From: Minisyncoccota bacterium
Lineage (GTDB): Bacteria; Patescibacteriota; Minisyncoccia; Phycocordibacterales; JABAAK01
DNA length: 64,000 bases
Direction: 5' to 3'
Assembly: GCA_965204115.1 (NCBI GenBank)
Contig: OZ241963.1
Location: forward strand, 468,622-532,621
The notes under the pieces are model-generated. The model saw only the letters and a program-made list of their open reading frames with translations. It searched no databases and was not told where the DNA came from. Below are positions 4,470 through 40,432 of the stretch, piece by piece. Both the position numbers and the translations under genes were made by a program. Position 1 is the first letter of the stretch; each line of letters starts with the position of its first letter.

Positions 4470-4559
4470 TGTTTGCCTGTTGGTATATGAAAAAGGCGCA
4501 GCGGGATGGTATCCCTGCTGCGCCGATGTGTGTCATTAAGTGACACTGTTATTAGGCGA

Positions 4560-6591: not shown

Positions 6592-7767
6592 ATGTCAATA
6601 TCAAGCGCTAAAGGCGATAAAAAACCAGGAGGGTTTGTTGCAGGTTCATACACGAAGCATTTTTATGGAAAGGAATATGAATACGAAAGTTTCTATCCAA
6701 ATTCTGTGAATGTTCCGTATGCTCACAAGGATTTGCGCATACCCATTCTCCTTGAGGAGGCGGCGCAACATCTTGCTGAGTTGAATGCGTATTCTCACCT
6801 TGTTCCGGACATTGATTACTTTATTCAAATGCATGTACGAAATGAAGCGGTAAAATCCAGCAGAATTGAAGGGACGAATACTGGTATTGATGAGGCAGTA
6901 CTTGATGAGAAGGAGGTAAGTCCTGAACGAAGGGATGATTGGAAAGAGGTGCAAAATTATATTGAGGCGATGAACTACGGGGTGGACCGAATGGTCAAAC
7001 TCCCACTCTGCATGCGTCTTTTGTGTGGTATGCACAAGATACTTATGCAAGGCGTCCGAGGTGAGGGTAAGCAGCCGGGTGAAGTTAGATCAAAGCAAAA
7101 TTGGATTGGTGTCGATATTAAAACTGCTTCATTTATACCCCCGCACCAGGAAGTGGTTCCTGAACTATTGCAGGATTTGGAAATGTTTTGGAATGATAAA
7201 AATAATCTCACCATCCCAAACCTTATTAAGGTCGCCATATCACACTATCAATTCGAGACAATTCACCCTTTTAATGATGGGAATGGACGGATCGGTCGCA
7301 TACTTATTGTTATTCATCTTATGAGTATGGGGATTTTGGAAAAGCCGACGCTTTATCTGTCTGACTTTTTTGATCGTCATAAGGGTAAATACTATGATGC
7401 ACTCACATTTGTGCGTGAGCGAAATGATATTGATCAGTGGGTTTTATTTTTTCTCTCCGGCATCGTTGAAACTGCGAAAAAAGGGAAGGGTGTTTTGAGG
7501 GAGATCATTGATCTTCGCACAGGTTACGAAGAGAAACTTCTCACTTTTGGGCGGCGTGCAAAAACTGCAAAAGCGTTAATCTGGTTCGCTTTTTCCAGCC
7601 CTGTGTTTGATGTTGCTTCAGCGGCAGCATACCTTGATTTATCCCGCAGTACGGTAAATTCAATTGCCAAAGAAATGGTGGCGGCAGGTATTCTGAAAGA
7701 GTCAACCGGATTTTCGCGAAACAGGATATTCTCACTCCATGAATATGTAGATTTATTCAAGAAATGA
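6592..7767 (+). CDS. fic: Fic family protein (class II, with an N-terminal inhibitory motif)
   Basis: Canonical Fic motif HPFNDGNGRIGR. An N-terminal SSRIEG matches the (S/T)xxxE(G/N) alpha-inh motif. Length 391 aa. Confidence 0.85.
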   Translation: MSISSAKGDKKPGGFVAGSYTKHFYGKEYEYESFYPNSVNVPYAHKDLRIPILLEEAAQHLAELNAYSHLVPDIDYFIQMHVRNEAVKSSRIEGTNTGIDEAVLDEKEVSPERRDDWKEVQNYIEAMNYGVDRMVKLPLCMRLLCGMHKILMQGVRGEGKQPGEVRSKQNWIGVDIKTASFIPPHQEVVPELLQDLEMFWNDKNNLTIPNLIKVAISHYQFETIHPFNDGNGRIGRILIVIHLMSMGILEKPTLYLSDFFDRHKGKYYDALTFVRERNDIDQWVLFFLSGIVETAKKGKGVLREIIDLRTGYEEKLLTFGRRAKTAKALIWFAFSSPVFDVASAAAYLDLSRSTVNSIAKEMVAAGILKESTGFSRNRIFSLHEYVDLFKK

Positions 7768-13376: not shown

Positions 13377-16300
13377 ATGGATAAGTATGCTCGTTCTTTT
13401 CGGCAGGGGTTACGGCGTCCGATTTTGCTACTACTACTGCTTATTATGTCTTTTGTTTTTTATGCGACGACGCATGACACTTCTCGGGAAGGAGGTTCTA
13501 CTGTGTCGTATGCACAGTCGTCGACTTCTCGTGCCGCGTGGTTGGTAAAATCGTTTATTTGGAGTCGGGATGTGAATGCCTGGGCGCGGACGAACTGCAC
13601 TATGACAATCGGTGGGTTGGGTGCCACGGTGCTTGCTGCTTCAAGTCAGTCATATTGCAGCAACACCAGTTATGCAAACTTGAGTTTTCTGCAGTACTAC
13701 CATGACATTGATCCGGATGACACAACGCCGAACAATCGTTCTGATGATGTGTACGGCAAGATCAAAGGGCGTGCGTGGTCGCCGTTCTATGGAGTTATAT
13801 ACTTTGACCCCTCTGATTTTCCTTCCGCCGGTGCCGGTGCGTCCTGCTACGGGCTGACCGGGAATGATCGGCAGCCGCGGATAGAGCGACCCGAAGGCGG
13901 TAATGTGCGGATAGTCGGTTGTGCGTATGTGCCGCTTTTGCGTGATTATATTCTTTTCAACAGGTCCGGCGCGACGCATTCCGCTATGCCTTCTTCTTCC
14001 GAGTGGGGCGGGGTGCATGTTCTCACGGTGGAGAATGTTGCCAGTGCGTACCTCGTGCTGCGTGGTTGCGCGTGGTCAGCGTCAAATGGTTTTTGGGCAT
14101 TCGGATCGAACCAATCTTCTACCTCAGATGGCAAACAGAATTGTCTGCCGTCGGGACATAACACCAAGCTTAAAGCAGTGCTCCCTGAATCACGCATCGG
14201 CAGCCGCGGTGGTGTTTCGATTACAGTGAGTCCGACTCGCACCACCCTAAAAATCGGGCAGGAGGTTAGGTATCAGTACTTATGTCCTTCCGGGTATAAT
14301 ACCCCTACGCTTCGTATCGGCTCTCGGATTATTTCTACCGCCCTCGCACTTTTTCGTGGCTATCATAGTGAGATTTTCACTGACTCCGTGAGCGACCTCC
14401 TCCTTACCTGCACCGATGGCACTAATGTTTTCACCTCAGACCGCTCCTCTTCCGGTGCGATTGCTCCCTCGACTCAGAATTCTTTCTTTATTTCCTCATT
14501 TGCGGTTACTCCGTCTGTGCTCACTGAAGGCGGCTTTGTTTCATTCGGCGGCTTTGTGAGTAATCAGGGCAGTTTTGCGGATAGGGTTCCTGTTGACACT
14601 GCTACCGGGCACTGCGATAATACTCAGCGATATGGGTGTATTTACGGCGTTGCGAATGAAACGGTGATTGACGATAGTGATTCGTTGTATTATCAGTGGC
14701 GATGTGATGGGGTGGGCAATGCGGCACATTCAGGAATTTGTCAGATTCCGAAGGATTCTTCTCCTGCCGGTCTTTGTGATAATACTGTTCGCAATGGCTG
14801 CATGGTCGGCACTCCTAACGACGCTGCGGTTGTTGATATCCCTGCCTATTACCGTTGGCAGTGTGATGGTGTTAATGGTGGCAAGAACTCCGGTGCCTGT
14901 CAGTTTTCTACAAAGGCTGTTCTTGGTAATGAGGGCTACTGCACTATTACGAACAAGATTACCAAGCAGGAGATAAAGCGATTTGATGTTGACGGTATCA
15001 ATGTGGGTATCCCCGGTACTGATGTGGCAGTGCGGGATGCCGTGTATGATTTGCAGTGTCGGTATAAGAGGTTTAAGAGTGACGGAACTTTTGAAAAATG
15101 GCAGTCAGTTTCTGCCCCCCCTGTTACGGTGAAGGTTTTGCCGAGAAGTGTTTCTGAACGGAATGTTTCCGGTGCCGTTGACCCGCCGGTTTTTTCTGTT
15201 TCTAATGATACTGTTTCGGTGACCATCCCTCCCGGCGCTGCTATGGTGTATGTGTACCGTCTTAACCCTGCTTCTTCGAGCCAGGTTTCCCCAAGATCGT
15301 TGTACAAAATTTTTGTTGATCGTGATGCTGTTGAGCTGAGCAACAGTGAAACTGTTGATGAGCTGAAAGTGCGACTGTTTGAGTCTGCTGTGCGGAGTAG
15401 GGTAGTGGTGGTCGGTTCCCGCTCCGGAGGTATCACCAAATCTGCGGCCATCGGCAAGTCGCTGGTTGCTGCTGCACGAACCGTGAGCGGTGTATGGAGT
15501 CAGCAGACCGCATATACTTTCTCAGCTGATGGTTCCTGCGATGAATCGCTGCGCAATGGTTGCATTGTCGGTGCTGCCAATGATGAGGCGCTTGATGACT
15601 CCTCTACACACTATAGATGGCGATGTGATGGAATTGGTGGTGGGCGAGATTCTGTTGCTTGTGAAATACACAAGCCAATTGACGGCGGTTGGAGTGACTG
15701 GGCGTTATCTCCGGATGCTGTTCCTTGCGCAAATCCATTTACCCAGACAAGGGCTTGCAACAATCCGACACCGGCACACGGTGGTGTCGGATGTTCCGGC
15801 TCTTCAAGTCGTCCGAGTGTTGGGACGCAGTGTCGGTATAATGAGGTTTGCAGATATGGCTCTTGCGAGTTGTTGCCGTTCCTGTGTCCGGCAGGTTCTG
15901 TAGGTCCGAGTCCTGAGGTTACATATTGGGAGGTCGGAAGTCACAGATGTCTTTGGCGTGCGCCGAATAGGCAACCCACTCTCCCTGGTGCTTGGAGAGG
16001 GGATCGTTATACACTTCGTGCAAACACTGTTGTTAAAGGTGGCTATGAGGGATTTGGTTCGTTGGTGTTTGAGTGTCGAGGCTCCTATGATGATGTCAAG
16101 CGTTCTAATTGGAAGACGGTAGCCACCAATTGTGGTCCGGTTAGTACTGCTTGTGATACAGCGATACGCAACGGCTGCTTTGCCGGTACCGCTGTGGAAC
16201 TTGCCAGTTCTTCTACGCATTATAAATGGCGATGTGATGGGGTTGTTGGTGAGGTGTCTGTTGCCTGTGAGAAGCACTTGCCAGTTGACGGTGATTGGGG

Positions 16301-16676
16301 TGATTGGACACCGTCTGCGGATACCGTTGCTTGTGGAACTTCATTTGCTCAGACGAGGTCTTGTGATAGTCCGGCGCCGGCATATGGTGGTGTGGCGTGT
16401 TCCGGTTCTCCAAATCGCCGGGGTGTTGGGGAGCAGTGTTCGTCCGGTCGGGTTTGTGAGAACAATGTGTGTGTTTTGCAGTGTAGTAAAAAACGGATTG
16501 ATAGAACTTTAACCGGAGGTGGGGGTGCGATATGTCCATTCCAGGCCGAAGAGGTCCCTGTCGGACGAGGCACTTATACACTCAGGTCAAAAATTACTAA
16601 GTGGGGAACTGGTTCTATCGTGTTTGAGTGTAGAGATTCGGGGTGGGTTGAGGTGAGTAATGAATGTACCAGATAA
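13377..16676 (+). CDS. Large secreted Cys-rich repeat protein with two thrombospondin type-1 (TSP1) repeats
   Basis: N-terminal signal anchor. Six or more copies of a C-x5-(R/Q)(N/Y)GC-x-G...Y(Y/R)W(R/Q)CDG-x-G-x5-C module. Two segments match the TSP1 consensus: GGWSDW...C...TQTRAC.NPTPAHGGVGCSG and GDWGDW...C...AQTRSCDSPAPAYGGVACSG. Confidence 0.75.
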   Translation: MDKYARSFRQGLRRPILLLLLLIMSFVFYATTHDTSREGGSTVSYAQSSTSRAAWLVKSFIWSRDVNAWARTNCTMTIGGLGATVLAASSQSYCSNTSYANLSFLQYYHDIDPDDTTPNNRSDDVYGKIKGRAWSPFYGVIYFDPSDFPSAGAGASCYGLTGNDRQPRIERPEGGNVRIVGCAYVPLLRDYILFNRSGATHSAMPSSSEWGGVHVLTVENVASAYLVLRGCAWSASNGFWAFGSNQSSTSDGKQNCLPSGHNTKLKAVLPESRIGSRGGVSITVSPTRTTLKIGQEVRYQYLCPSGYNTPTLRIGSRIISTALALFRGYHSEIFTDSVSDLLLTCTDGTNVFTSDRSSSGAIAPSTQNSFFISSFAVTPSVLTEGGFVSFGGFVSNQGSFADRVPVDTATGHCDNTQRYGCIYGVANETVIDDSDSLYYQWRCDGVGNAAHSGICQIPKDSSPAGLCDNTVRNGCMVGTPNDAAVVDIPAYYRWQCDGVNGGKNSGACQFSTKAVLGNEGYCTITNKITKQEIKRFDVDGINVGIPGTDVAVRDAVYDLQCRYKRFKSDGTFEKWQSVSAPPVTVKVLPRSVSERNVSGAVDPPVFSVSNDTVSVTIPPGAAMVYVYRLNPASSSQVSPRSLYKIFVDRDAVELSNSETVDELKVRLFESAVRSRVVVVGSRSGGITKSAAIGKSLVAAARTVSGVWSQQTAYTFSADGSCDESLRNGCIVGAANDEALDDSSTHYRWRCDGIGGGRDSVACEIHKPIDGGWSDWALSPDAVPCANPFTQTRACNNPTPAHGGVGCSGSSSRPSVGTQCRYNEVCRYGSCELLPFLCPAGSVGPSPEVTYWEVGSHRCLWRAPNRQPTLPGAWRGDRYTLRANTVVKGGYEGFGSLVFECRGSYDDVKRSNWKTVATNCGPVSTACDTAIRNGCFAGTAVELASSSTHYKWRCDGVVGEVSVACEKHLPVDGDWGDWTPSADTVACGTSFAQTRSCDSPAPAYGGVACSGSPNRRGVGEQCSSGRVCENNVCVLQCSKKRIDRTLTGGGGAICPFQAEEVPVGRGTYTLRSKITKWGTGSIVFECRDSGWVEVSNECTR

Positions 16677-16714: not shown

Positions 16715-16798
16715 GTAGTGTGCATTACTACGCACGCCACTCCCTCTCCTCGTAACAAAAATCTAAACATTTTTAAATTGCGGAGAGGGAGGGATTCG
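16715..16798. repeat. Direct repeat copy 1: tRNA-Ser 3' end (18 nt) plus about 65 bp of downstream flank; att-like
   Basis: Matches 16917..17000 over about 84 bp with 2 mismatches. Copy 1 is not attached to a tRNA body. Confidence 0.8.
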
Positions 16799-16916: not shown

Positions 16917-17069
<153 letters not shown>

Positions 17070-17715: not shown

Positions 17716-20700
17716 ATGTCGTTCTCTCGCTCTCTCTTTATCCTTTCCCTCATCCTTGGCGGGATGGTTTTCCTCCTCTTCGGCACTGCGCATGCGCGGG
17801 AGCGGCCCTCCTGGGATTCGTTCTCCTCGGAATATGCCGGTGTCGGTGTTGGGTATCGGGCAGGCGTGCGATTCTTTCGGGATGTCTCTGCTGATTTAGA
17901 GGGAGGAGACCCCACGCCGTCATTTTCTGTGAAAGTGGGGACCTCGCTTCCTGCGGGGCTGCAGCTCACCGGCACCGGCTATCTTGTTGGTGTGCCGACT
18001 GCCGCCGGAGTGTCGAAATTTACCATCGTGGCAAGCAATGCCTCCGGTATTGCGGAAAAACGGGTCACCTTACACATTCGTGAGCCATTCGGTGATACCA
18101 CCTATGGGCAGGGAGAGGTGCACAGCAGTATCCTTGATGCTCAAGTGTTTCTCAACAGCACCGATTGCCCGGTCGCGGCGTCAGGAGTAGGGTCACCAGG
18201 CAAGGAGGTTCTCTCATTCACTCCCGCCCTCAAGCAAGCCACCACCTGCTATCAACAGCTGCACTCTCTTCCCGCCACCGCCACCCTCACCCCGGCTCTC
18301 CTCCAACATTTCATCCAAACCTACACCGGTCGCTTTATTCCCGGAGATTTCACCCTGCCACCCGGTACCGTTCCGCTTTCTTCACCGCTCTGGAGTGATG
18401 ATCGTGTCACCTACACCACCTTTTCCAATGCACCCGTTACCCGCGACCTCTCTGATTCCCTTGTGCGCGGTTACCCCTCACCATCCTTTTCTGTGCAGGC
18501 AGGAACTGCTCTCCCGATTGGGCTTTCCCTCAGCGACTTCGGCATCATCTCCGGTACCCCCACCACTCCCACCACCGCTGATACCACCATTGTCGCCACC
18601 AATTCCTCCGGCAGCGCATCGTTTCGTATCGCCTGGACTGTGCGGGAAGGCGGGTACTCCCTCGGCTCCACCCACCCTGATGTTCGTCAGGCGCAGGTGT
18701 ACCTGAACGGCACTCCGTGTCCCATCGCCAGCACTGGCTCCGGTTCCCCCGGACAGGAGACCTCCTACTTCGGCACCAAGACCCGGCAGGCACTCAACTG
18801 CTACCAGCGGTTGCACAGCCTTCCTGTCACGAACACCATCACCCCAACGCTCCTCACACACCTGTCAAGACATTACACCCCTCCCGCTCTAAACAGACCT
18901 CAGGAGGTCTCCACACCTCTACAATCACCACTCGATCCGCCTCCTGCCCCTGCTGTTGTGCCCCAGGATGGTGTCTGCGATATCACTGTTTCGCAGGGAT
19001 GTGCCGTCGGCACCCCCGTTCAGCATGAACCCTCCTATATCTCCTTAGGAGAGCGCTGGCGCTGTCGTGGTGTCAACAACGGCTTCAGCTCTGACTGGTG
19101 TGTCCGCTGTGACGACGGCTATTCCTTTGACGGAAGAAACTGTTCCCGCAGCACCGCACAGGGTTCTCCCGGACTCCGCTGCTCCGGCACCACTGTCTCT
19201 TTCTGCCGCCTCCCTCGCTCTGCGCACGGCAATACCGTTGCCGGCGCCTGCTCCACAGGTCGCATTGGCTCTTGCGAATATGCCTGTCGTGACGGCATCT
19301 GGACTGCTGTGGCGAACAGCTGCACAAAACCAAGCCCGTGTGTCGGAAGCACTGTTGCCGGCTGTGTTCTGCAAGATACCCGACACGACACTCTCACCGA
19401 CGGCTCCTGTGCCGACGGCTCCACCGGCGCCTGCCGTTACCGCTGCACAAACAGTGTCTGGAAAGCTGTTTCTAACACTTGTGCTCGCGCCTGTGTTGAC
19501 GGTACTTTCTCCGGCTGCGCGGTGGACGCTGCTTCACACGATGCTGTCGGCGGCTCCTGTACTGCCGGCTATACCGGCTCGTGTGCGTACCGCTGCACTG
19601 ACGGCATCTGGAGCAGAGTTTCAAATACCTGCTCGGTGATACCTGTCGTGGAGAGTCAGAGGCGATCGTGTATCGAGGGCATTTTCTCCGGCTGTGCGCT
19701 GGACACCACCTCGCATAGTGCTGTTGACGGCTCCTGTGCCGTGGGCTATGTCGGCTCGTGCGCGTACCGCTGCGCTGACGGCTCTTGGAGTCAGGTTTCA
19801 AATACCTGTTCGGCAATATCTCCTGTGATGACTCAGGAGCAATTGCCCGGACCGTCTTTGGGCTGCTCGGCCAATGTTTTTTCTCACTGCGCTTTAGATG
19901 CTGTTTCTCACAGGGCGGTTGCCGGTTCGTGTGAGAGAGGGTACACCGGGTCCTGTCAGTATGCGTGTGGTAACGGGGAGTGGAATTTTGTTTCAAACAC
20001 CTGCACGCGACAGGCCTCCTTGGCCCAAAGAGTCATTACCCCGATAGTTTCCACCGTGTCGCGACTGGTCGGTGGCGGTGGCTCTACCAATGGCGAGGGA
20101 GGTGTTAGTAATGACGGGGGATATGTTAGGAAAAATACCGCATGCTTAGGCCAACAAAGTGTGGACGGTGTTTGCGACGGTCAGGGCGGGTGTTCTTCGG
20201 GGAAGAGGCGCGATCCGGGAGGGTCATACTGGACGCACGGCTCCTGTTCCGACGGCAATATTGAACGGTCGTACAGCTGTATAGGGCAGTGTGGCGGTTC
20301 AGACGCTTCATGCTCAGGCACTACGGTTTGTGATTTGGGGTGTAGTTATGGTTATGCACTTGATGGGGAAACCAGCAGCCCGCGGTGTAATAACTGCGCT
20401 TCGGACAGCGACTGTAGAACGGGAACTTTTTGCGAAAGGGGTCGGTGCATTATCGGTGTGGGAGCACGGGGGATTCCAACCTTCAGAATCGATCGTCTGG
20501 ATGAACTTCGTCAATGCGGGTGTGATACCTATGATGCGTTCTGTAGTAACAATCGCTGTACTTTCTGTTCTTGCAGCATCTTTGATGTCACGAAGAAGGA
20601 GTACAAATCAACCGGGAAATTGTGCAGTGTTACCTCTGATTGTTCAGGCGCTTCGGAAGTGGCGGGAGTTACCTGGGACAGCGAAGGGTGTCATTGTCAG

Positions 20701-22224
20701 CATTCACATGCGGACGGTTCTTTTCATGGAAATAACACACAGCATGGCACAGATGCTCAGGGTAACCGTGTTGACTCGGAGTGTACGGGTTGGTGCAGTC
20801 CCGGACCCTGCTATGAATCGGGCGGGATGTATGGCTGTCAAGTGGAGTGTGAGGACGGCATTGTAACGAAATCGAGCGGGTGCAAGAGCAGAGACGGTGC
20901 TTGGTGCGGCGGCGGCGGACTGGTGGGCACTCGCTGTTCTCGGGCCGCCGGCTCAGAAACACTCACGGCAAAAACACCTCCTAAGGTGGTTGACCGGACT
21001 AAAACTACCACAACAGGAACAGACACAGGAGGCGGCGCCGGCACAACGGGTGATGAGAGACGGCCTGATACGGGTAATGGCGGCACGATAGGCGGCACAG
21101 GCGGTGAAACAACCCTTGACTGCAGCAGCAGATCTTCCTGTCCGTGTCCGCAGAACGATTGGTGCTCCAGTGGTCAGGTGGGTACCTGTTCCTGTGTCCC
21201 CAACTCAGATGGAAGTCGCTGCATCCAAAGTCGTTCTTTGACCCCGTGTCCGCAAGGCCAAAACTGCAGCAACGGTTCATGTACAGGAGGAGGCGGCACA
21301 GGCGGTGAAACAACCCTTGACTGCAGCAGCAGATCTTCCTGTCCGTGTCCGCAGAACGATTGGTGCTCCAGTGGTCAGGTGGGTACCTGTTCCTGTGTCC
21401 CCAACTCAGATGGAAGTCGCTGCATCCAAAGTCGTTCTTTGACCCCATGTCCGCAAGGCCAAAACTGCAGTAATGGTTCATGCACCTCTTCCGGTGGCGG
21501 GAATGCCGATTGCCCGACGACGATAGAATCCTGCAGGTGCCATGGCATCAGTCTTTTCGGGGGATGTATCGGTACCTACTGGGAAAGAGTCAGGCTGTGT
21601 AATGGTGACGCACTCTCCAGAAAGTGTGGTAGTAGTACAACCAAAAAGAAAAAGGCCACTACTAAGGTTCGCGCTCCGGACAATCCCCCTAAAGGTCCGG
21701 AACCTATTCAAAACGTTCCCGCTCCAGAGAGGGCTGCCCAGAAAGCCCCTGTTCAAACGACTACCCAAAGGGCTCCTGTCCCTGTAGATGATACTCCTCC
21801 CTGCAGCTCTAATGAGTGTGGTTGTTCTAACACCGGGACATGGTGTCATGGGGGTTCATCAGAGAGGTCATGTTACTGCGCAGTGAGCAATGGGTCGTGT
21901 GTAAAGAAATATTCTACATCATCTTGCGCTAGTGGGGTCTGTAGCGGCGGGTCATGTACCTCAGCTGGCGATACTCCGAATAGTTATCCTCCAAAAAGTT
22001 ACTCGCCAAAAAGTTACTCTCCAAGAAGCTACAGTCCAAGAAGTTACTCTCCAAGAAGCTACAGTCCAAGAAGTTACTCTCCAAGAAGCTACAGTCCAAG
22101 AAGTTACTCTCCGAGAAGTTATCCCTCAGCGGATTACGGCGAGTGTTGCCACAGAGGGCACTGTCACACTAGGAGCAGGTCTTATGCAGACGGGGACCGG
22201 AGTTGCGAACACAAGAATGACTGA
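17716..22224 (+). CDS. Giant secreted Cys-rich surface protein with PG-binding-like and Ig-like domains, Cys modules and a SYSPR-repeat tail
   Basis: Signal peptide MSFSRSLFILSLILGGMVFLLFGTAHA. Two PG_binding_1-like segments (V..Q.YLN...GSPG.ET..FG..T..A..CYQ..H.LP.T..ITP). Six tandem C-x-DG-x-FSGCA-x-D...SH.AV.GSC..GY.GSC.YRC.DG.W modules. A duplicated 65-aa Cys unit. A C-terminal (SYSP[RK])n tail and a Cys/His tail. Confidence 0.75.
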   Translation: MSFSRSLFILSLILGGMVFLLFGTAHARERPSWDSFSSEYAGVGVGYRAGVRFFRDVSADLEGGDPTPSFSVKVGTSLPAGLQLTGTGYLVGVPTAAGVSKFTIVASNASGIAEKRVTLHIREPFGDTTYGQGEVHSSILDAQVFLNSTDCPVAASGVGSPGKEVLSFTPALKQATTCYQQLHSLPATATLTPALLQHFIQTYTGRFIPGDFTLPPGTVPLSSPLWSDDRVTYTTFSNAPVTRDLSDSLVRGYPSPSFSVQAGTALPIGLSLSDFGIISGTPTTPTTADTTIVATNSSGSASFRIAWTVREGGYSLGSTHPDVRQAQVYLNGTPCPIASTGSGSPGQETSYFGTKTRQALNCYQRLHSLPVTNTITPTLLTHLSRHYTPPALNRPQEVSTPLQSPLDPPPAPAVVPQDGVCDITVSQGCAVGTPVQHEPSYISLGERWRCRGVNNGFSSDWCVRCDDGYSFDGRNCSRSTAQGSPGLRCSGTTVSFCRLPRSAHGNTVAGACSTGRIGSCEYACRDGIWTAVANSCTKPSPCVGSTVAGCVLQDTRHDTLTDGSCADGSTGACRYRCTNSVWKAVSNTCARACVDGTFSGCAVDAASHDAVGGSCTAGYTGSCAYRCTDGIWSRVSNTCSVIPVVESQRRSCIEGIFSGCALDTTSHSAVDGSCAVGYVGSCAYRCADGSWSQVSNTCSAISPVMTQEQLPGPSLGCSANVFSHCALDAVSHRAVAGSCERGYTGSCQYACGNGEWNFVSNTCTRQASLAQRVITPIVSTVSRLVGGGGSTNGEGGVSNDGGYVRKNTACLGQQSVDGVCDGQGGCSSGKRRDPGGSYWTHGSCSDGNIERSYSCIGQCGGSDASCSGTTVCDLGCSYGYALDGETSSPRCNNCASDSDCRTGTFCERGRCIIGVGARGIPTFRIDRLDELRQCGCDTYDAFCSNNRCTFCSCSIFDVTKKEYKSTGKLCSVTSDCSGASEVAGVTWDSEGCHCQHSHADGSFHGNNTQHGTDAQGNRVDSECTGWCSPGPCYESGGMYGCQVECEDGIVTKSSGCKSRDGAWCGGGGLVGTRCSRAAGSETLTAKTPPKVVDRTKTTTTGTDTGGGAGTTGDERRPDTGNGGTIGGTGGETTLDCSSRSSCPCPQNDWCSSGQVGTCSCVPNSDGSRCIQSRSLTPCPQGQNCSNGSCTGGGGTGGETTLDCSSRSSCPCPQNDWCSSGQVGTCSCVPNSDGSRCIQSRSLTPCPQGQNCSNGSCTSSGGGNADCPTTIESCRCHGISLFGGCIGTYWERVRLCNGDALSRKCGSSTTKKKKATTKVRAPDNPPKGPEPIQNVPAPERAAQKAPVQTTTQRAPVPVDDTPPCSSNECGCSNTGTWCHGGSSERSCYCAVSNGSCVKKYSTSSCASGVCSGGSCTSAGDTPNSYPPKSYSPKSYSPRSYSPRSYSPRSYSPRSYSPRSYSPRSYSPRSYPSADYGECCHRGHCHTRSRSYADGDRSCEHKND
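21091..21482 (+). repeat. Near-exact tandem duplication (2 x about 196 bp) inside the giant gene
   Basis: ggcggtgaaacaacccttgactgcagcagcagatcttcctgtccgtgtccgcagaacgattgg... occurs twice back to back. It encodes TLDCSSRSSCPCPQNDWCSSGQVGTCSCVPNSDGSRCIQSRSLTPCPQGQNCSNGSC. Confidence 0.85.
22000..22125 (+). repeat. 15/30-bp in-frame microrepeat encoding (SYSPR)n
   Basis: agttactctccaagaagctacagtccaaga iterated, encoding SYSPRSYSPR about 8 times. Confidence 0.85.
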
Positions 22225-22520: not shown

Positions 22521-22594
22521 GGGCGATTAGCTCAGTTGGCTAGAGCGTCTGGTTTACACCCAGAAGGTCGCAGGTTCGAGCCCTGCATCGCCCA
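22521..22594 (+). tRNA. tRNA-Val (anticodon UAC)
   Basis: GGGCGAT acceptor, D-arm GCTC-AGTTGGCTA-GAGC, anticodon stem-loop TCTGG-TTTACAC-CCAGA, T-arm GCAGG-TTCGAGC-CCTGC, 3' ATCGCCC-A. Confidence 0.85.
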
Positions 22595-22706
22595 CTAAAA
22601 AGCATTAGAAGTGTATGCTTGACATACACCTTTCGGCGGGTTGTCTTTGCGGCTGTATGGGGTGGGGTGGTGGGGCAGTGTTGTTCGTGCTGTATGATGG
22701 TGGTAT

Positions 22707-23438
22707 ATGGAGCCGGAGGTGCTGCATGAAGACGAGTATATCGTGGCTATTGATAAGCCGCACGGGTTGGTGGTGCATCGGGGCGTGGGCACGGATGAGA
22801 CGCTGGTTGATTGGATTCTTGATCGGTATCCGGAAATGCGGAGAGTGGGGGAGTCGGATTGTCAGTTGTTGCGGCCGGGGATCGTGCATCGGCTCGACAA
22901 GGATACCTCGGGGGTGATGGTGCTGGCGAGGCGGCAGGAGGCCTTTGCCGCCCTGAAGAAGCATTTTCAGAAAGGGAAAGTCGAGAAGGAGTACCATGCG
23001 TTTGTCTATGGAGAGCCGCGGGTCGCGCGCGGAACGGTCTCATTACCTATCGGGAAGAGCCGGTCTGATTTTCGGCGGTTTTCTGTGCGTCATACACGGG
23101 GGGAGCTGCGGCAGGCGCGGACGGAGTATGTGGTGGTCGGGTCGTGCACCGTGGGCGCTTCGTTTGTGCGTTTCTATCCGAAAACCGGGCGAACGCACCA
23201 GATACGGGTGCATGCTGAGTCAATGCACACGCCGATTGTATGCGATTCGTTGTATGCCGCTTCGCGGTCGCCGATGTTGGGGTTTTCCCGCCTGGCGCTG
23301 CACGCACGGCGGATATCGTTGCAAACACACTGGTACGATGAGACACTACACCTCGTCGCGCCGCATCCTGTTGATTTTTCAGAAGCGTTCTCTCTTTGTG
23401 ATGATGCGGTGCAGCAATCGGTTGCGTTTTTGGGGTAG
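22707..23438 (+). CDS. RluA-family pseudouridine synthase
   Basis: Catalytic motif HRLDKDTSGVMVLA plus HQIRVH, characteristic of the RluA/RluD family. Length 243 aa. Confidence 0.85.
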   Translation: MEPEVLHEDEYIVAIDKPHGLVVHRGVGTDETLVDWILDRYPEMRRVGESDCQLLRPGIVHRLDKDTSGVMVLARRQEAFAALKKHFQKGKVEKEYHAFVYGEPRVARGTVSLPIGKSRSDFRRFSVRHTRGELRQARTEYVVVGSCTVGASFVRFYPKTGRTHQIRVHAESMHTPIVCDSLYAASRSPMLGFSRLALHARRISLQTHWYDETLHLVAPHPVDFSEAFSLCDDAVQQSVAFLG

Positions 23439-23503: not shown

Positions 23504-26062
23504 ATGTCTCCATTCTCGGCAGTGTGGCGTGTTTTCCTGCTTACCCTCGGTTTGACAGTGCTTATCAGCGTGGGTTTTCTCGGGGTGGCGGACGCGCAAG
23601 AGTCTACAACCCGCCGAAGCCCCTTGGATTTGGTAACAACCTGTGCCGCTGATGAATATGCCACCAGAACCAAAGAGGGCATCGTCTGCAAGGCGCCCAC
23701 AGACAACTGGGATAGTGAGGCCACCGCAGGCAGTCACTGCAGAACAGGACAGTTTCTGAAAGTTACCCCAACCGGCCTGCAGTGTTTTCCCTTCAGCGAC
23801 AAGACCAGCACCTACACCACCTACTGCTCCGACTGCTGCGGAGTTGAAGAATTTGCCGTCATCACTACCCTGGGGTTGCGTTGCGCGGGTGCCAGTTGTT
23901 CCAGTGACAGTGAGTGTGCTGGTAATGCCCACTGTGACCCCATCATCAACCGCTGTGTGCAGTGTGTCGGTGACAACTGCGGGGAGTGTGTCTGGGACAC
24001 TAACTACTCCTGTGATTCTGCGCAGCCGACAAAACGGGTCAAGCATTGTCGATTCTCCGGGGTTATACGGAATACGCAGTTCCTGACCTGTCCGCATAAC
24101 GGGACCTGTTCGGGTGGGGCGTGTGTGTGTGTGCCGAAAACTTCCGGGGGCTGGACTGCCGCGCCGTCGTGTGCCGCGCCGTCCTCCGTGCGGTGTGACA
24201 CAGCCATTCCCGATAAGTATGGCACCTGTCGGTACGGCACCACTGCGGCTTGTGAGACGATACAGTGTACCGGCACGCGACCGACGCGAACCTGCACCGG
24301 CAGGGGTACCTATTGCCCGACCGGTCAACAGTGTGGCGTGTATGGCTGCTATTCTCCGACAGGCACCTCCCCTTCTTCATACAGTCCTGCTTCGTATAGT
24401 AGTGCCCCTTCTTCATACACTCCTTCCTCCTACCCCCCCTCCTCCTATGTTGACTCCCCTCCTTCCTATCCTATTGTTGACCCCCCTCCTTCTATTGACT
24501 GCAGCAGCAAATCCTCTTGTGGGTGTTTACAAGACCAGTGTGTGGGTAATCAGGCGTACAGTTGCTCCTGTGTCGCTCGTTCGGGTCGCTGCGTTCTGAG
24601 TCGTACGCTGACCCCGTGTTCGCATGGTTGTAGTAACGGTTCATGTGATGATGACAGCCGAGGGAAGGGGGGAGGTGTAGGTGTTCGTGATCAAGGAGGC
24701 AGTTGTCCTTCGCCGAGCTACACCTGCGGTAATTGGAGCGGAGGATGTCTTACGGCGGGCAGTTTTGGCGGGTTGGTTACCGGGAACAGCAAGATACGGA
24801 GGTGTACCTGTGAATCTGAAGGCTGCTGTGATCAGGGGTCAGAGTGGTTAGAGCACGGGAATTGTAGTCAAGGCACATCAACGAATACGAAGAAGACATA
24901 CACCGGCACATGGTCAAGAGGGAGTTGTAGTTCCTCGAAAAAGATCTGTGGTATAGGAAACTTTGAGACTGAAACTTTCACCTGCTCTGTGACCTGTTCC
25001 GGAGGCGCCTGCGATCCGACTACAAAACCGAGCGGATCATACAGTGTTGAAGGAGGGTGTTGTAATGGTGGGGTAGGTATAGCATGTACTACTGATGTGC
25101 AAAGAAAACAATATGAAGACACAAGGAAGGGCGCAGAACTTGTCGTAGACACCCTCACAAGTAACCATTGTCATACGGGTGGTCGGTGTGTAACATGCTC
25201 TTCAATAGTCGGTGGACATGAGGACACCGGTCATGGTTGCGGCCCTCATAATAGTGACAGCTCTGCTACCCCCCCGTCCTACCCGCCGAATAGTTACCCT
25301 TCAGATAGTGAAGATAGTGATACTCCTCCCTGCAGCCCTAATGAGTGTGGTTGTTCTAACACCGGGACATGGTGTCATGGGGGTTCATCAGAGAGGTCAT
25401 GTTATTGCGCAGTGAGCAACGGGTCGTGTGTAAGGAAATATTCTACATCATCTTGCGCTAGTGGGGTCTGTAGCGGCGGGTCATGTACCTCAGCCGGTAA
25501 TACTCCGAATAGTTATCCTCCAAAAAGTTACTCGCCAAAAAGCTACAGTCCAAAAAGTTACTCTCCGAGAAGTTACAGTCCAAGAAGTTACTCTCCGAGA
25601 AGTTACCCTTCAGATAGTGATACTCCTCCCTGCAGCCCTAATGAGTGTGGTTGTTCTAACACCGGGACATGGTGTCATGGGGGTTCATCAGAGAGGTCAT
25701 GTTATTGCGCAGTGAGCAACGGGTCGTGTGTAAGGAAATATTCTACATCATCTTGCGCTAGTGGGGTCTGTAGCGGCGGGTCATGTACCTCAGCCGGTAA
25801 TACTCCGAATAGTTATCCTCCAAAAAGTTACTCGCCAAAAAGCTACAGTCCAAAAAGTTACTCTCCGAGAAGTTACAGTCCAAGAAGTTACTCTCCGAGA
25901 AGTTACTCCAAGAAGCCGAGAAGTTACAGTCCAAGAAGTTACTCTCCGAGAAGTTATTCCTCATCATCAGCGAGCCTCCATTGTCATTGGGGTGGTAAGT
26001 GCAGAACCTGCGGAGAAGGTCAAGGACACGAGGATACTGGTCACAGTGGTTGCAGTCATTAG
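23504..26062 (+). CDS. Giant secreted Cys-rich protein, paralogous to the C-terminal half of 17716..22224
   Basis: Signal peptide. Many Cys-rich modules. Two tandem copies of TPPCSPNECGCSNTGTWCHGGSSERSCYCAVSNGSCVRKYSTSSCASGVCSGGSCTSAG followed by SY(S/P)P(K/R) repeats. His/Cys tails HCH.GG.C.TC...GHEDTGH.GC. Confidence 0.75.
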   Translation: MSPFSAVWRVFLLTLGLTVLISVGFLGVADAQESTTRRSPLDLVTTCAADEYATRTKEGIVCKAPTDNWDSEATAGSHCRTGQFLKVTPTGLQCFPFSDKTSTYTTYCSDCCGVEEFAVITTLGLRCAGASCSSDSECAGNAHCDPIINRCVQCVGDNCGECVWDTNYSCDSAQPTKRVKHCRFSGVIRNTQFLTCPHNGTCSGGACVCVPKTSGGWTAAPSCAAPSSVRCDTAIPDKYGTCRYGTTAACETIQCTGTRPTRTCTGRGTYCPTGQQCGVYGCYSPTGTSPSSYSPASYSSAPSSYTPSSYPPSSYVDSPPSYPIVDPPPSIDCSSKSSCGCLQDQCVGNQAYSCSCVARSGRCVLSRTLTPCSHGCSNGSCDDDSRGKGGGVGVRDQGGSCPSPSYTCGNWSGGCLTAGSFGGLVTGNSKIRRCTCESEGCCDQGSEWLEHGNCSQGTSTNTKKTYTGTWSRGSCSSSKKICGIGNFETETFTCSVTCSGGACDPTTKPSGSYSVEGGCCNGGVGIACTTDVQRKQYEDTRKGAELVVDTLTSNHCHTGGRCVTCSSIVGGHEDTGHGCGPHNSDSSATPPSYPPNSYPSDSEDSDTPPCSPNECGCSNTGTWCHGGSSERSCYCAVSNGSCVRKYSTSSCASGVCSGGSCTSAGNTPNSYPPKSYSPKSYSPKSYSPRSYSPRSYSPRSYPSDSDTPPCSPNECGCSNTGTWCHGGSSERSCYCAVSNGSCVRKYSTSSCASGVCSGGSCTSAGNTPNSYPPKSYSPKSYSPKSYSPRSYSPRSYSPRSYSKKPRSYSPRSYSPRSYSSSSASLHCHWGGKCRTCGEGQGHEDTGHSGCSH
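25307..25915 (+). repeat. Tandem duplication of an about 300-bp cassette (2 copies, above 95% identical); a third about 90%-identical copy lies in the neighbouring gene at about 21791..22100
   Basis: The stretch gatactcctccctgcagccctaatgagtgtggttgttctaacaccgggacatggtgtcatggggg...agttactctccgagaagttac is repeated with a period of about 300-309 bp. The homologous stretch in gene 17716..22224 differs at a few positions. Confidence 0.85.
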
Positions 26063-26161: not shown

Positions 26162-26190
26162 AAACAACCCGCGATATTGCGGGTTGTTTG
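26162..26190. terminator. Bidirectional terminator hairpin between convergent genes
   Basis: ACAACCCGC-GATATT-GCGGGTTGT with A/T-rich flanks. Lies between the stop of 23504..26062 (+) and the stop of 26198..28063 (-). Confidence 0.6.
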
Positions 26191-28063: not shown

Positions 28064-28378
28064 TCTGGTTTCCTCCTCAAAATAGCGTTACAAGACCTTT
28101 TTAGGGTCTTTTTTGTTAAGGCTCAAACTACAGTTATTATACAATACTGTAGCAAATATGCAAGTTACCGTAGGCACTTGCTGAGCGATATTATCTGACT
28201 TTACCCCGCTCTTCTGGCACCAGTATACCGCACCCCTTTCTCGCTGCCAATACCGATTTCTTGTTTTTGCAGTAGTCGGTTTGGTGCGGAAGGGGGTGGG
28301 ATAGGTTGGGGTGAGGGGCTCTTTGATTATTGTGTTGCATTTTCCGCCGTGTATTTTTTCAGGGTTGTATACTGGGAA

Positions 28379-31300
28379 TATGGTTGTGCGTTGTTTTTTC
28401 TATCTCTTTCTTTTTTTTGGACTATTCTTATCACCGGTTGCCATCGCGGAAGGTGCTGTTGTTTCCGGTGCCGCTCCGGGGGAGATGAAAGATGTGTTGG
28501 TGGATTGCCTGTCACTGGCGGATGAGCGGGATGCCTGCTATGCGACTGCTTGCGAGTATGAGCCCGGGTACTTGTGTGCGGAAGATGTGCTTGATGTGGT
28601 GGTAGAGATTGCCGGTCCGGAGCGAGCGATGGGGGTGCTGCACGAGATAATGGCGAGCCCTGTGTTTGCTATTACCTCTGACGGGCATCTGTTATCGCAT
28701 ATTGTCGGTCGAGCGACATCGCGCGTGTTCGGCTCTTCAGGGAACAATTTCTTGCGCTGTCCTTCTGACTTTAACAACGGTTGTTTTCACGGTTTTTTTG
28801 AGGACACCCTTCCGAAATCGGATTCGCCGGTGGATGTGGTTGTTTCTATTTGCGAGAATATGCCTCCTGACACACCGTTGAAAGAAAAATCCTATTGCTA
28901 TCACGGTGCGGGGCATGTGTTTATGATGCAGGTGAGCCATGATCTTGATGCTGCAATTGATCTTTGCCTGCAGGTGCCTGAGAATTGGTCGGAGAGTTGT
29001 TGGCAGGGGGTTTTTATGGAGAATGCCGGTGAGCGGGAGTGGGAATTGAAGCGGAAGAATTTTCGGGAAGATGAGCCATTGTATCCGTGTACCGCTGTTG
29101 AAGATCGTTTTAAGACCGAGTGCTATGTCAATCACCACGGATATCTTATCCGGCACTATAGCGAGTCATGGGATGAACTTGTTGCTGTATGTCTCGGTGC
29201 GGAGGATTTCACGCATGCCTGTCTCGGTGGCTTGGGGCTCATGCTCGGCAGTGATTTTTGGACTACCATCGTCGCTCAAGGGACACCTGTTGAAGGTAGG
29301 CCCCACACGGAGCAGGTGGTTTTTCTCTGTAATCAGTTTCCCTATGATTACATAGATGTTTGTTACTCCAATCTTATCCCTTCGTTTCTTAATTTTGACG
29401 GCACGGATATTCGAAATGCCTCAGGGGTGTGTGCTCTTGCCGATGCAGAGCATCGGCATGCTTGCTTCGAGCGCATCGGCTCTTACCTGAGTAATTTAGT
29501 TTCCGATGAGTCGGAAAAGATTGCTGTATGCCATAGTGTTCCGAGAGAATATCGTGATGCGTGTTTGGGTGTGCGTTCGGAAGAGTTTGATGGATATGTA
29601 GATAGGGAGGTGTCCGAGGGCACTGCGGCTAATGGTTCCGGTTCATTTTTCTCTAGAGCAGTTCAGTTTCTTTCCGCGTTATTTGGCCGTTTAGCAACGG
29701 CTTTTACGCGACCGGTGCATGCACATTCTGGTGGTAGTGATGAGCAGGATCTGTCTCGGTATGCGCACCCTGAATTGCATCAAGGTCTTGAGGTGTGTTT
29801 ATCGTTGCAGGAGGGGAGGGATATGTGTTATTTGTCTCTGTGTGATGGTGCTGTTGGGTTTCTTTGTGCGGAGGATGTACTGCATACCGCCACGGTCGGT
29901 TTTGGTCCCGAGGTGGCGATGCAGGTGTTGGAGGAGATGATAGCAAGCCCCCTTTTTTCATTCAATGCGGCGAACGAAGGGCACAGCTTGGCGCATGCTA
30001 TTGGGAGAATAACTGCACAGCACTTCGGTGGCACCGGCGATGCCTTTTTGCGATGTCCCACTGCACTTGATTATGGCTGCCAGCATGGGTTTCTTGAGGA
30101 TGCGTTGATTAGAGTTGACTCTCCCGCGGAGGCGGTGACGAATATTTGTGAAAGTTTGCCGGCAGTGCCGACGATAGGTCGACCGAATTGCTACCATGGT
30201 TCGGGGCATGGAGTGATGATGAATGCGAGCTATGACCTTGCTGAGGCACTTGCTGTGTGTGATCAGGTTCCCGATCCTTTGAGTTGTTTTACCGGAGTTG
30301 CTATGGAGAATGTGAGTGGGAAGACCTCCGGTAGAATACAGGAACTATATGCAGAGCATGACAGTTTTGAAAAAGATAACCCGCTGGCGCCCTGTGACAC
30401 ACTGACTGACACACTTCATCGCAGGGCGTGTTATCGACAGCACATGCCGTATTTGGCATCTTATTTCAGCCATGACCTGCAGGATGTGGTGGATGCCTGT
30501 CTTGGTGCGGGTGATCCTGTTGATATTCGTGATTGTGTGTTTGGCTTCGGTGCGTATGGTATCTATGACGGCATTCAGGAGAGTTTTCTTCACGGTTTTG
30601 AGGGTGATTTTATGGACAAAATAATTATTATGTGCAATCAGTTTCCTGAGGAATACCGCATGCATTGCTACACACCGGCGATTGATCAGTCGACTGTTTT
30701 TTATCGGGTGAAAAGGGCTTCTGATTTTTGTTATAAGATTGACGCGCGATACATGCGGGAGTGTTTCAATGTCATCGGCGATCGTTTGAGGAGTTTAGTT
30801 GTTGATCGTGACGAGACAGAAGCAGAGTGCTCTTCAGTTCCTGAGGAGTATCGGATTGAGTGTACTGATCCGCATCGGCATCAAGGGGAAGATGTCTCTG
30901 TTGATACGCCTTTTGGCGTGATAGCGGTTGAGCAGGCATCCGATTCTTTATTTGCGTGGGTTAAGCAGCTTCTTTCTGACATTGTTGCGGATGTATTCAG
31001 TGTGCTTGGTATGTTTGCTCGCCCTGTTTCCGCGCAAAGTGTTGCTGTGCCTTTAGCTGAAGGGGTGGAAAAATGTTTGGAGCAAGGGGGTGAGGTGGCG
31101 TGTTATGCTTCGCTGTGTGCATATGAGTCAGGGTATTTGTGCGCGGAGAGTATTTTGGAGGTGGTGACGAAAGGGTGGGGTCCTGAGGTTGCTATGGAAA
31201 TACTGATGAATATGATACAGAGCCCACTTTTCTCTTTTAGTCCGTCATCAGAGGGGCATAACTTAGCTCATACCGTTGGTCGGGTTACAGCGCAATGGTT

Positions 31301-33419
31301 TGGATCTGATGGAGTGTCATTTATCAGATGCCCGACTGATCTTGCGTATGGCTGTCACCATGGGTTTTTTGAGGTTGCACTTGTCGCATCGGAAGGCGAC
31401 CCTGCCGCCGCGGTTCACAGCATCTGTGAGCATATGCCGGATAAGCCGGAGTTGGGGAAGGTGAGTTGCTATCATGGTGCCGGTCACGGGATAATGATGC
31501 ATGAGAGCCATGACTTAGATAGAGCACTTGCGGTGTGCGATCAGTTGTCTCACGGGCGGAATATTTGCTATGATGGTGTTTTTATGGAGCATATTAACGC
31601 AAGGCATGGTCTCGGATCGGAGAATAATCAGTTTGATGTTCATAATCCCCTTGCGCCGTGTAATGTTGTTGCAGAGAAGTATCGGCATGATTGCTTCTAT
31701 CGGCATGGGAACTATCTGTTCCCCTATTTCGGGTATTTATTGGAGGATGTTATTGAGGCGTGTCTCGGTGCCGGTGAGCACATTGAGGTGTGCTTGACTG
31801 CTGTTAGCGGCTCTTTGTTTCTTCCCAGTTTTCAGGAGCGGGTGTTTCCCGGTATGCGAGGTTCATTAGCGGATAAGGCGACGACGATATGCGGTGTGTT
31901 TCCTGATGGGTACAAGCGTGTCTGTTATGTTGTTTTTGCCGGAGAGGCGACTATTTTTCATGGAGCGAAAGAGGCATCAACTCTTTGCTCTGATGTTGAT
32001 AAGGTATATCAATCGTTATGCCTGAGAGAGGTTAATAGGAGAGTTAATGATTTGGCGGCAACTGATTACGAGCGAATTGCGATGTGTGCTGCTGTTTCTG
32101 AAGAGTACCAGCATGTATGCTTGTCTGAAGGTGATTTTGATCGTCGTTCTGATCAGGCTGAGGAGACAGCAAGTTCCACCCCCCCCTCTTTTTTACACGA
32201 CTTATTTGCTTATGTGGATAGTGTTGTGCGCTCATTTTTTTCCGCGGTTGTCGCTATAAAGCGTCCTATCAAGAATGTATCTCATGCTGATTGTGATGCC
32301 TCTCCTGTATGGCGATATGTGGGTGATTTTGTGTATGGAGGTGTTGGGGATCGTGACTATTTCGGGGATGCCGTCTCTTTATTCGGCACTACGCTTGCGG
32401 TTGGTGCGTTTGGAGATGATGCTGGTGATATTGACACTGGGGCGGTGTATTTGTTTGAGTTGGGGGGTGGCGCCCTCGGAGATCCGTTACTTAAAATTTC
32501 CGGCGAGCAAGCAGGAGAGGGATTGCTTAATGTCGGTTTGGAGGCGAGAGATCGTCTTGGCAGAGGTTTGTCACTTCAGGGCAATACTCTTGCGGTGGGC
32601 GCGTATTATGATTCAGAAAAGAAGGGGGCAGTATATCTGTTTGAGTCGGATGCTGAAGGTGTTTGGAGTCAGTCGCTCAAGATATCTGACAATGAAGGTG
32701 GTAAAGGATTACTTCCGATTTCTCTGAGTCGTGCCGCTCATTTTGGCGCATCTGTGTCGTTGCACGGTAACAGATTGGCAGTCGGCGCATATTTGTCTGA
32801 TGACGGTATGGGTGCGGTGTATCTGTTTGAGAGGGATGCTGACGGTATTTGGTCATACCTGTTGAAGTTGTCCGGGACAGTTGTTCCGCATGAGCGGGAT
32901 GCTGCGTTTGGGCGATCTGTTTCCCTGTATGGTGATTTTTTGGCAGTCGGCGCACCTCGGAGTGGCCCTGGAGATACCGGGGCGGTATATCTTTTTAATC
33001 GCGATGCATCTGGCACATGGGATCTTGTGTTAGAATTTTCTGTCACTGGTGCGGGAGTTGACTTGTCAGAGGGTCTGGATGAGAATGATCATTTCGGAAC
33101 CTCAGTTTTTCTTCGTGATACTGTTCTTGCGGTCGGTGCGTATGGAGATGATAGTGAAATTGCTGATACCGGAGCAGTGTACTTATTTGAGAAGAGTGTC
33201 GGCAGTAACTGGGAGCAATCGTTGAAGATATCTAATGCCAGTGAGTTATTCATCGTGCCTCTTGAGGAGGGCGGGATGTTCGGGAGTGCTGTCTCGTTTT
33301 CCGATGAGGTGTTAGTTGTCGGTGGATACCTGTATGATAGCGGGGGCACTGAAAGAGGTGTGGTTTATTTATTTGAAAATGAGTTGCAAAATACTTGTTC
33401 TGCTCAATATCGCCTATGA
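28379..33419 (+). CDS. Giant secreted protein: three copies of a novel Cys/His-rich module of about 400 aa, followed by a C-terminal FG-GAP beta-propeller
   Basis: Signal peptide. Module hallmarks recur three times: (E/G)RDACY..LC.YE.GYLCAE.VL, GH.L.H.VGR, FLRCP.D...GCFHGFFE, CYHG.GHG.MM, C..GVFMEN, DNPLAPC, ACLGAG. The C-terminal roughly 370 aa carry seven FG-GAP-like blades (FG.SVSL.G..LAVGA...D.GAVYLFE). Confidence 0.7.
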
Positions 33420-40313: not shown

Positions 40314-40432
40314 TGCAAATAAAATGCAAAAATATCCTTATTTTAAGGGATATTTTTTTTATTTGCAAACCGCTGTGCAAATAAAATGTGAAAATATCCT
40401 TATTTTAAGGGATATTTTTTTTATTTGTAAAT
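40314..40432. repeat. Two tandem 56-bp nested palindromes with a 63-bp period
   Basis: TTTGCAAATAAAATG(C/T)(A/G)AAAATATCCTTATTTTAAGGGATATTTTTTTTATTTG(C/T)AAA occurs twice. Outer arms TTTGCAAATAAAA / TTTTATTTGCAAA. Inner arms ATATCCTTA / TAAGGGATAT. Confidence 0.8.

Follow-up and report, generated by a model that had tools for sequence, protein, structure and literature searches.

We analyzed a 64,000-nucleotide (nt) stretch of the genome of a Minisyncoccota bacterium (contig OZ241963.1, positions 468,622 to 532,621; hereafter the window, whose first letter is position 1), in which a gene for a secreted cysteine-rich protein, referred to as gene 2 (23504-26062, + strand), contains two back-to-back copies of a 100-codon module. 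A third copy of this module, or cassette, lies near the 3′ end of a second gene for a secreted cysteine-rich protein upstream, referred to as gene 1 (17716-22224, + strand). We consider it probable that this arrangement reflects a very recent in-frame tandem duplication of the 100-codon module, together with sequence exchange between genes 1 and 2, in a secreted, disulfide-rich modular protein of a bacterium of the candidate phyla radiation (CPR). We further infer that recombination produced these changes and that cassette number varies between strains.

The two copies in gene 2 occupy 25312-25606 and 25612-25906 on the + strand, and a repeat search aligned them at 100% identity over 295 nt with a period of 300, which corresponds to 100 codons. 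Tandem Repeats Finder (TRF) delimited the same element (25312-25906, period 300, 2.0 copies, 100% matches, 0 indels, score 1190), and a script that followed identity at an offset of 300 found a longest exact run of 295 nt, a length at which a chance origin is impossible. To the left of 25312, identity between the copies picks up again at an offset of 309, at which 30 of 42 positions match and the last ~20 nt are exact. Alignment attributes this shift to 9 additional bases in copy 1, GAAGATAGT at 25311-25319 (+ strand), which amount to AGATAGTGA occurring twice. This in-frame 9-base-pair (bp) indel in the linker preceding copy 1 is the sole difference between the extended copies. A preliminary description of this DNA had reported copies more than 95% identical with 9 extra bp in the first; the indel was confirmed by both the offset-309 identity and the alignment, and the identity had been understated, as it is complete apart from the indel. 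The junction between the copies and the left boundary of the repeat have only the hexamer AGTTAC in common (6 nt, Ser-Tyr codons). A single intact open reading frame (ORF; 23504-26062, +) spans both copies, and the repeat is in frame within it. A gene on the opposite strand beneath the repeat was considered and dismissed, as the minus strand holds no ORF of at least 80 amino acids (aa) across 25307-25915.

At the protein level, each 100-codon cassette comprises an acidic linker, SDS(EDS)DTPP, a ~55-aa domain with ten cysteines (the 10-Cys domain) and a basic array of six pentapeptides, SYPPK, SYSPK, SYSPK, SYSPR, SYSPR and SYSPR, encoded by six 15-nt units and with an isoelectric point of about 10. 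In copy 1, a regular-expression scan of the six-frame translation and a domain alignment located the 10-Cys domain, CSPNECGCSNTGTWCHGGSSERSCYCAVSNGSCVRKYSTSSCASGVCSGGSC, at 25331-25486 (+), followed by the six-unit array (one SYPPK, two SYSPK and three SYSPR) at 25511-25600 (+). The same scan located an identical domain in copy 2 at 25631-25786 (+), where the array (25811-25966, +) repeats the six units of copy 1 and continues with a 21-nt unit encoding SYSKKPR, two further SYSPR units and a degenerate SYSSS. This irregular SYSKKPR unit, at 25901-25921, breaks the SYSPR array behind copy 2; it resembles two canonical 15-nt units that have lost 2 nt and 7 nt, with a net change that stays in frame.

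The protein that carries these cassettes is 852 aa long by ORF translation and identical to a database protein, P0001. Its composition is unusual, with 84 cysteines (9.9%) and 17.5% serine, and its translation begins with a signal peptide that ends ...GVADA before QE. A conserved ~280-aa N-terminal domain comes next, then a variable set of Cys modules, the two cassettes and a tail rich in His and Cys. Translation and a motif scan placed two His/Cys-rich motifs that bracket the cassettes, an internal one just 5′ of them (HCHTGGRCVTC...GHEDTGHGCGPH, 25166-25249, +) and one at the C-terminus (HCHWGGKCRTCGEGQGHEDTGHSGCSH, 25979-26059, +). Within such a motif, the string GHEDTGH was considered as an HExxH protease motif and rejected on account of its spacing. 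Scans of the 852-aa protein against Pfam (cut-off E 0.01) and NCBIfam returned no match, and near its C-terminus the protein, which ends ...GHSGCSH, contains no LPXTG-like motif or other recognizable anchor.

The third copy of the cassette was located in gene 1 at ~21783-22128 (+) by ungapped identity, BLASTN and the regular-expression scan. The repeat search aligned 21783-22077 without gaps at 91% identity, and BLASTN matched nucleotides 2115-2460 of gene 2 to nucleotides 4182-4521 of gene 1, likewise at 91%, over ~346 nt (window positions ~21789-22128). This copy consists of a 10-Cys domain (21802-21957) and a SYSP(K/R) array of nine units (21982-22116). Copies 1 and 2 were identical over 295 nt, whereas the part of the third copy that includes the Cys domain differed at 7 of 192 nt (96.4% identity; sites within 25337-25499 of copy 1), with 4 synonymous and 3 replacement changes. 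The preliminary description had a third copy of about 90% identity ending the upstream gene; the degree of identity stands, and the position requires correction, as 96 nt that encode a His/Cys-rich tail follow the cassette before the stop at 22224. Beyond the cassette, the only DNA similarity that BLASTN found between the two genes lies in a divergent domain, which we call the type-B 10-Cys domain and which is present once in gene 2 (24500-24646, +), with ~66% DNA identity to its counterparts in gene 1. The type-B value serves as a yardstick of the background divergence between the genes. Because the cassette is 91-96% identical and the genes are otherwise at most 66% identical, it stands out as a stretch of recent common descent within diverged genes, and this is the pattern expected from gene conversion or from a recent copy-and-paste of the module.

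Gene 1 encodes a 1502-aa secreted Cys-rich protein, identical to database protein P0013 if the ATG at 17716 is taken as its start. The protein has 112 cysteines (7.5%) and a signal peptide, Pfam identified a PG_binding_1 domain in it, and it lacks the conserved ~280-aa N-terminal domain of gene 2. It also contains an older array of Cys modules, a pair of type-B 10-Cys domains, the third cassette copy and a tail rich in His and Cys (CCHRGHCHTRSRSYADGDRSCEHKND, 22144-22221, +). The older array, at 19398-20003, consists of four to five ~59-aa modules with 61-74% DNA identity to one another. The two type-B domains arise from a second, independent tandem duplication (21090-21485, +), identified by TRF, the repeat search and the domain alignment, in which a 201-bp unit encoding the divergent type-B domain and a Gly-rich linker is present twice at 98% identity. 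Between the two cassette genes lie a transfer RNA (tRNA) gene, tRNA-Val(tac) (22521-22595, +), and a gene for an RluA-type pseudouridine synthase (22707-23438, +; Pfam PF00849, E = 1e-28).

We compared the cassette domain with a profile search across a large protein collection. An exhaustive HMMER search with the 10-Cys domain profile gave 4 matches (P0001, P0013, P0014 and P0015) among 1.84 billion representative proteins, two of which, P0001 and P0013, are encoded in the window. The exhaustive profile search was used for these counts because low-complexity and Cys-rich queries can escape a word index; a word-indexed protein search with the 100-aa cassette missed even P0001, which contains it exactly, a limit of the index rather than an absence from the database. 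In all four carrier genes the domain sits in tandem cassettes that are in frame and nearly identical (98-100%), with units of 300 bp × 2 at 100% identity in gene 2, 201 bp × 2 at 98% in gene 1, 264/231 bp × 3-4 at 99% in the gene for P0014 (locus L004), where the number of 15-nt units varies, and 390 bp × 2.5 at 99% in the gene for P0015 (locus L007). P0010, a paralogue of P0014 encoded on the same 647-kilobase (kb) contig, carries a cassette of a different type, 243 bp × 2.1 at 99%. The genes for P0010 (L003, 10001-13645) and P0014 (L004, 10001-14560) are 98.5% identical over their first 538 nt and ~84% identical beyond, a mosaic that suggests conversion between paralogues in that genome too. 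An ORF in a metagenomic locus of the Joint Genome Institute (JGI; L006, 6180-7661) runs, in the order visible, from the N-terminal domain through Tyr/Pro arrays and a single 10-Cys domain to a His/Cys tail, which is the domain order of gene 2; P0014 likewise has the N-terminal domain, then Tyr arrays and then the 10-Cys domain. Given this recurrence in relatives, we regard this arrangement in cassettes, and its fast turnover, as a property of the family rather than an accident of assembly.

The N-terminal domain defines a somewhat wider family. Searching 5.8 billion clusters with the whole gene 2 protein returned 11 homologues (E 6e-64 to 3e-23), all of which match the first third of the protein only, at 40-54% identity in their best local alignments. 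Profiling the ~280-aa domain brought in 7 further homologues, and two more loci were found in JGI metagenomes; GTDB representative genomes contained no relative of the domain. Judged by the N-terminal domain, the family thus counts about 20 proteins, and judged by the 10-Cys domain, 4 representatives; the N-terminal signature reads PTIRQSPL...EYATxTYQGIVC...FLKITPTGLQC...EFAVITTLGLRC. Downstream of this domain, family members are mosaics of differing Cys modules. Several also carry periodic Tyr-rich arrays, namely (YTPPA/S)n in P0002 and (PSSYS)n in P0010 and P0014; because Ser replaces the basic residue in the latter, the charge of the array is not conserved. A regular-expression scan found the His/Cys-rich motif (C-x-H-K/R-H or HCHxGG(K/R)C ... 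GHEDTGH ... C-x-H) only in family members that bear Tyr arrays, which besides the window genes are P0002, P0010, P0014 and the L006 ORF. This motif may be a metal site.

The domain itself resembles no described family that we could find. Its ten cysteines are invariant and several other positions are conserved in the domain alignment across relatives. A Pfam scan of ten 10-Cys domain copies gave chance matches only (E at least 0.05), Pfam and NCBIfam scans of both genes assigned no family to the Cys modules or the arrays, and a sequence search of the PDB with the domain profile yielded no significant match. The only proteins returned from the PDB were evasins at E = 0.05, a match that we dismissed as chance. 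AlphaFold modeled the 10-Cys domain from ten sequences as a small β-hairpin domain with a predicted local distance difference test score (pLDDT) of 82. Foldseek paired this model with no PDB fold (best E = 1.5, the top-ranked structures being lipocalin hairpins at E above 1), and no knottin or cystine-knot protein was among the 50 Foldseek matches listed. The model of the N-terminal domain (pLDDT 72, predicted template modeling score 0.33) also had no Foldseek match. Cystine knots, whether of the knottin or growth-factor type, are built on six cysteines and three disulfides in a knotted topology, whereas the present domain has ten cysteines and neither a fold match nor a Pfam match. The preliminary description had called the repeat unit a Cys-knot-like domain followed by a SYSP(K/R) array. 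The Cys-rich domain and the array, both in frame, are as it described, and the cystine-knot label finds no support in the cysteine count, in the PDB folds or in the Pfam and PDB sequence families. We therefore prefer to call the unit an undescribed 10-Cys module, outside any described family.

We next considered how the duplication could have arisen and been maintained. In bacteria, the formation of a duplication and its later amplification are distinct processes. Each Cys domain is bordered by Tyr-rich arrays and by linkers, which would provide direct repeats for misaligned replication or recombination. The first duplication might have formed by slippage or illegitimate exchange at short homology in SY codons, and it was possibly independent of RecA, since the homology at the junction is only AGTTAC. 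Once a 300-bp repeat was in place, RecA-dependent unequal exchange could add and remove cassettes and keep them identical. Conversion without crossover could similarly copy a cassette between gene 2 and gene 1, its upstream paralogue at a distance of 3.5 kb. If the direct repeats of genes 1 and 2 crossed over instead, tRNA-Val and rluA would be deleted, so that only conversion-type products would be expected to persist. The periods of 300, 201, 264, 231, 243 and 390 bp and the 9-bp indel are all multiples of three, and the products therefore remain in frame. Homologous recombination is available to the host, as the window contains recA (49760-50842, − strand; Pfam RecA, E = 2e-134) and ruvA (1776-2348, + strand; Pfam RuvA_N, HHH_5 and RuvA_C). 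The earlier proposal that the repeats are substrates for RecA-mediated expansion, contraction and conversion between genes is thus plausible in light of recA and ruvA, the 96% island and the 98-99% cassettes of relatives, with the proviso that RecA was perhaps not involved in the first event.

A more far-reaching interpretation, which we regard as unlikely, is that this is a contingency locus, in which cassette gain and loss and conversion between paralogues are selected as a fast switch of the attachment specificity or antigenicity of an episymbiont, after the manner of Alp/Rib-type repeat variation or cassette-based antigenic variation. Such a switch would be in keeping with the near-identical tandem cassettes of every known carrier of the domain, whose periods and array lengths differ, with the mosaic paralogues (genes 1 and 2; P0010 and P0014) and with the strain variation reported for Cys-rich extracellular proteins of CPR bacteria (PMC4736985). 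However, there are only two or three copies, accompanied by no silent donor cassettes, invertase or diversity-generating retroelement, and no simple-sequence tract is present in the promoter or at the 5′ end. Neutral repeat turnover predicts the same pattern, and the interpretation goes beyond the data.

We give little credence to an assembly artefact, in which the true cassette number would be another one or genes 1 and 2 would have been mis-joined through the shared cassette. The preliminary description had named the repeats as an assembly hazard. Short-read assemblers cannot count exact 300-bp tandem repeats, the exact 295 nt exceed typical k-mers, another copy at 91% identity is found at a distance of 3.5 kb, and the number of cassettes could exceed two. 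Yet the copies are told apart by the 9-bp indel in the leading linker and by differing trailing sequence, and hence have a distinct junction; the frame is intact, with all indels in frame, and the gene ends in a His/Cys tail of the type found in relatives. The order of domains is also reproduced in P0014, with the L006 ORF adding the terminal His/Cys tail, and independent assemblies contain tandem cassettes at 99% identity, on contigs whose names (of the form ctgN_covx_c/l) suggest, on our own reading, a long-read assembler. Finally, that an old duplication has been held identical by purifying selection on the protein, with no recent recombination, is highly improbable: the ten cysteines and other conserved positions of the domain speak for constraint, but purifying selection does not preserve synonymous sites, and the identity there (0 differences in 295 nt between copies 1 and 2, against 4 synonymous changes in 192 nt of the third copy) effectively refutes it.

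Several points weigh against a recent duplication followed by exchange and turnover, the reading that we favor. Copy number comes from one assembly of one strain. An exact 30-mer from the cassette had no match in JGI metagenomes, and no second strain was found; the relatives, whose periods and copy numbers differ, belong to other species. The 100% identity could be explained equally well by one duplication of very recent date and no continuing turnover. Searches of Pfam, NCBIfam, the PDB and Foldseek gave no homology or fold match in support of a function for the domain or the array, and attachment of the protein to the cell surface is an assumption, as neither LPXTG nor another recognizable anchor is present.

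The genomic setting of the two genes is chromosomal, with polA, ruvA, metG, clpP, sodA, efp, recA, ftsK and three tRNAs in the window, and we dismissed a mobile element or phage origin in view of these housekeeping surroundings (polA, metG, clpP, sodA, recA, ftsK and efp). The methionyl-tRNA synthetase is 75-76% identical to those of a Candidatus Kaiserbacteria metagenome-assembled genome and of a 697-kb Candidatus Paceibacterota chromosome. Together with the 661,662-bp contig on which P0001 is recorded, these values indicate a Kaiserbacteria/Paceibacterota-like host within the CPR/Patescibacteria. Scattered among the housekeeping genes are many genes for large secreted proteins (FG-GAP, dockerin, DUF11 and PG_binding). 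One of these, at 28311-33419, encodes a 1702-aa FG-GAP protein with three internal repeats of ~1.29 kb at 64-78% identity. A further gene, at 13377-16676, encodes a 1099-aa secreted protein with thrombospondin type-1-like modules (GGWSDW...C...C) and no Pfam match, and also contains repeated C..RNGC..G....A..D....Y.W.C.G modules; thrombospondin-like modules are present in relatives P0006 and P0010 as well. Downstream of gene 2, a GC-rich hairpin bordered left and right by T/A runs (26162-26189) lies between convergent genes and looks like a bidirectional terminator.

Further repeats lie elsewhere in the window. An 84-nt direct repeat of 98% identity occurs at 16715-16798 and 16917-17000, its copies 202 bp apart, and the second copy covers the 3′-terminal ~19 nt of tRNA-Ser(tga) (16982-17069, − strand) along with downstream sequence that contains a hairpin. 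The duplicated partial 3′ end of tRNA-Ser looks like an att-type scar of integration or excision, or else a local duplication. Two intergenic tandem repeats were also recorded, one of 40 nt × 2.5 (100%) at 6457-6558, just 5′ of a Fic-domain gene (6592-7767), and one of 62 nt × 1.9 (94%) at 40314-40431, adjoining a Schlafen/AlbA_2 gene (40441-41874, − strand).

As to what the cassettes may do, their composition points to the C-terminal region of the gene 2 protein most likely being a spacer or attachment stalk. The SYSP(K/R) arrays would form extended basic spacers that carry disulfide-stabilized knobs, with a possible role in wall binding or adhesion, and cassette number and array length would then determine how long, how charged and how multivalent the C-terminal extracellular region is. 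Literature searches with the pentapeptide strings returned noise only, and none was found on cysteine-rich proteins in Kaiserbacteria.

Three groups of known proteins offer points of comparison in sequence organization and composition. Gram-positive surface proteins of the Alp/Rib/alpha-C type contain ~240-bp DNA-identical repeats in which recombination changes copy number, length and antigenicity; the repeat units there are Ig-like/Rib domains without cysteine, and an LPXTG sortase signal is found at the end of the proteins. Gene 2 resembles them in encoding a signal peptide and a long DNA-identical tandem repeat (295 nt, 100%), and differs in that its repeat is a disulfide-rich domain with a Tyr/Pro/Ser/basic array, LPXTG is absent and one strain has been seen. 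Extensins (PF02095) are secreted structural proteins that likewise contain short Ser/Pro/Tyr repeats at regular intervals, and P0002, with its (YTPPA/S)n array, is the only relative to bear a precomputed Extensin_1 match. The SYSP(K/R) arrays, in contrast, contain a single Pro-Lys/Arg instead of Ser-Pro(3-5) blocks, and Extensin_1 is not among the families assigned to the 852-aa protein, which had no Pfam match at E ≤0.01. Mussel foot protein-1 is built of decapeptide repeats, AKPSYPPTYK, which are adhesive repeats rich in Tyr and Lys. The cassette protein is similar in having short extracellular tandem repeats of Tyr, Lys, Pro and Ser together with Cys- and His-rich segments of the kind seen in byssal proteins, although this likeness is compositional only, with no homology found.

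Extending this last analogy, one could imagine the cassette as part of a bioadhesive or holdfast material in which Tyr-Ser-Pro-Lys/Arg arrays, 10-Cys knobs and His/Cys (metal-binding?) motifs would act together, a proposal that we consider improbable. If it held, the chemistry would be of the mussel byssal or extensin-like kind, with cation-π interactions and Tyr cross-linking cured by metal, and a CPR episymbiont would be glued to its host by a material whose adhesion strength is tuned by cassette copy number. We know of no tyrosinase or 3,4-dihydroxyphenylalanine (DOPA) chemistry in this organism.

A further parallel in kind comes from CPR bacteria themselves, whose genomes encode large Cys-rich extracellular proteins that vary between strains and for which a role in attachment has been proposed, as described for Peribacteria (PMC4736985). 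Genes 1 and 2 are like these in belonging to a small-genome CPR host, in encoding large proteins with a signal peptide, 7-10% Cys and no functional annotation, and in having neighbors that include giant secreted proteins (FG-GAP, PG_binding). At 1502 and 852 aa, with 7.5% and 9.9% Cys and signal peptides, their products fall within this class, which is a descriptive one and not a homology family. They differ in that the Peribacteria proteins come from another phylum, and in that the 10-Cys domain, the SYSP(K/R) arrays and the cassettes are not described there.

Turnover of tandem repeats in genes for surface proteins is already well known; here it involves a rare, undescribed domain in a CPR bacterium. 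Because the phenomenon is familiar and a function is not demonstrated, we see in the locus a solid annotation rather than a surprise. It shows, at single-base resolution, the duplication of a module, its homogenization and its exchange between neighboring paralogues, and it defines a small undescribed domain family and would be useful as a marker of strain-level variation. Life in attachment to other cells is presumed for CPR/Patescibacteria, and giant unannotated Cys-rich secreted proteins such as these are the main candidates for mediating it.

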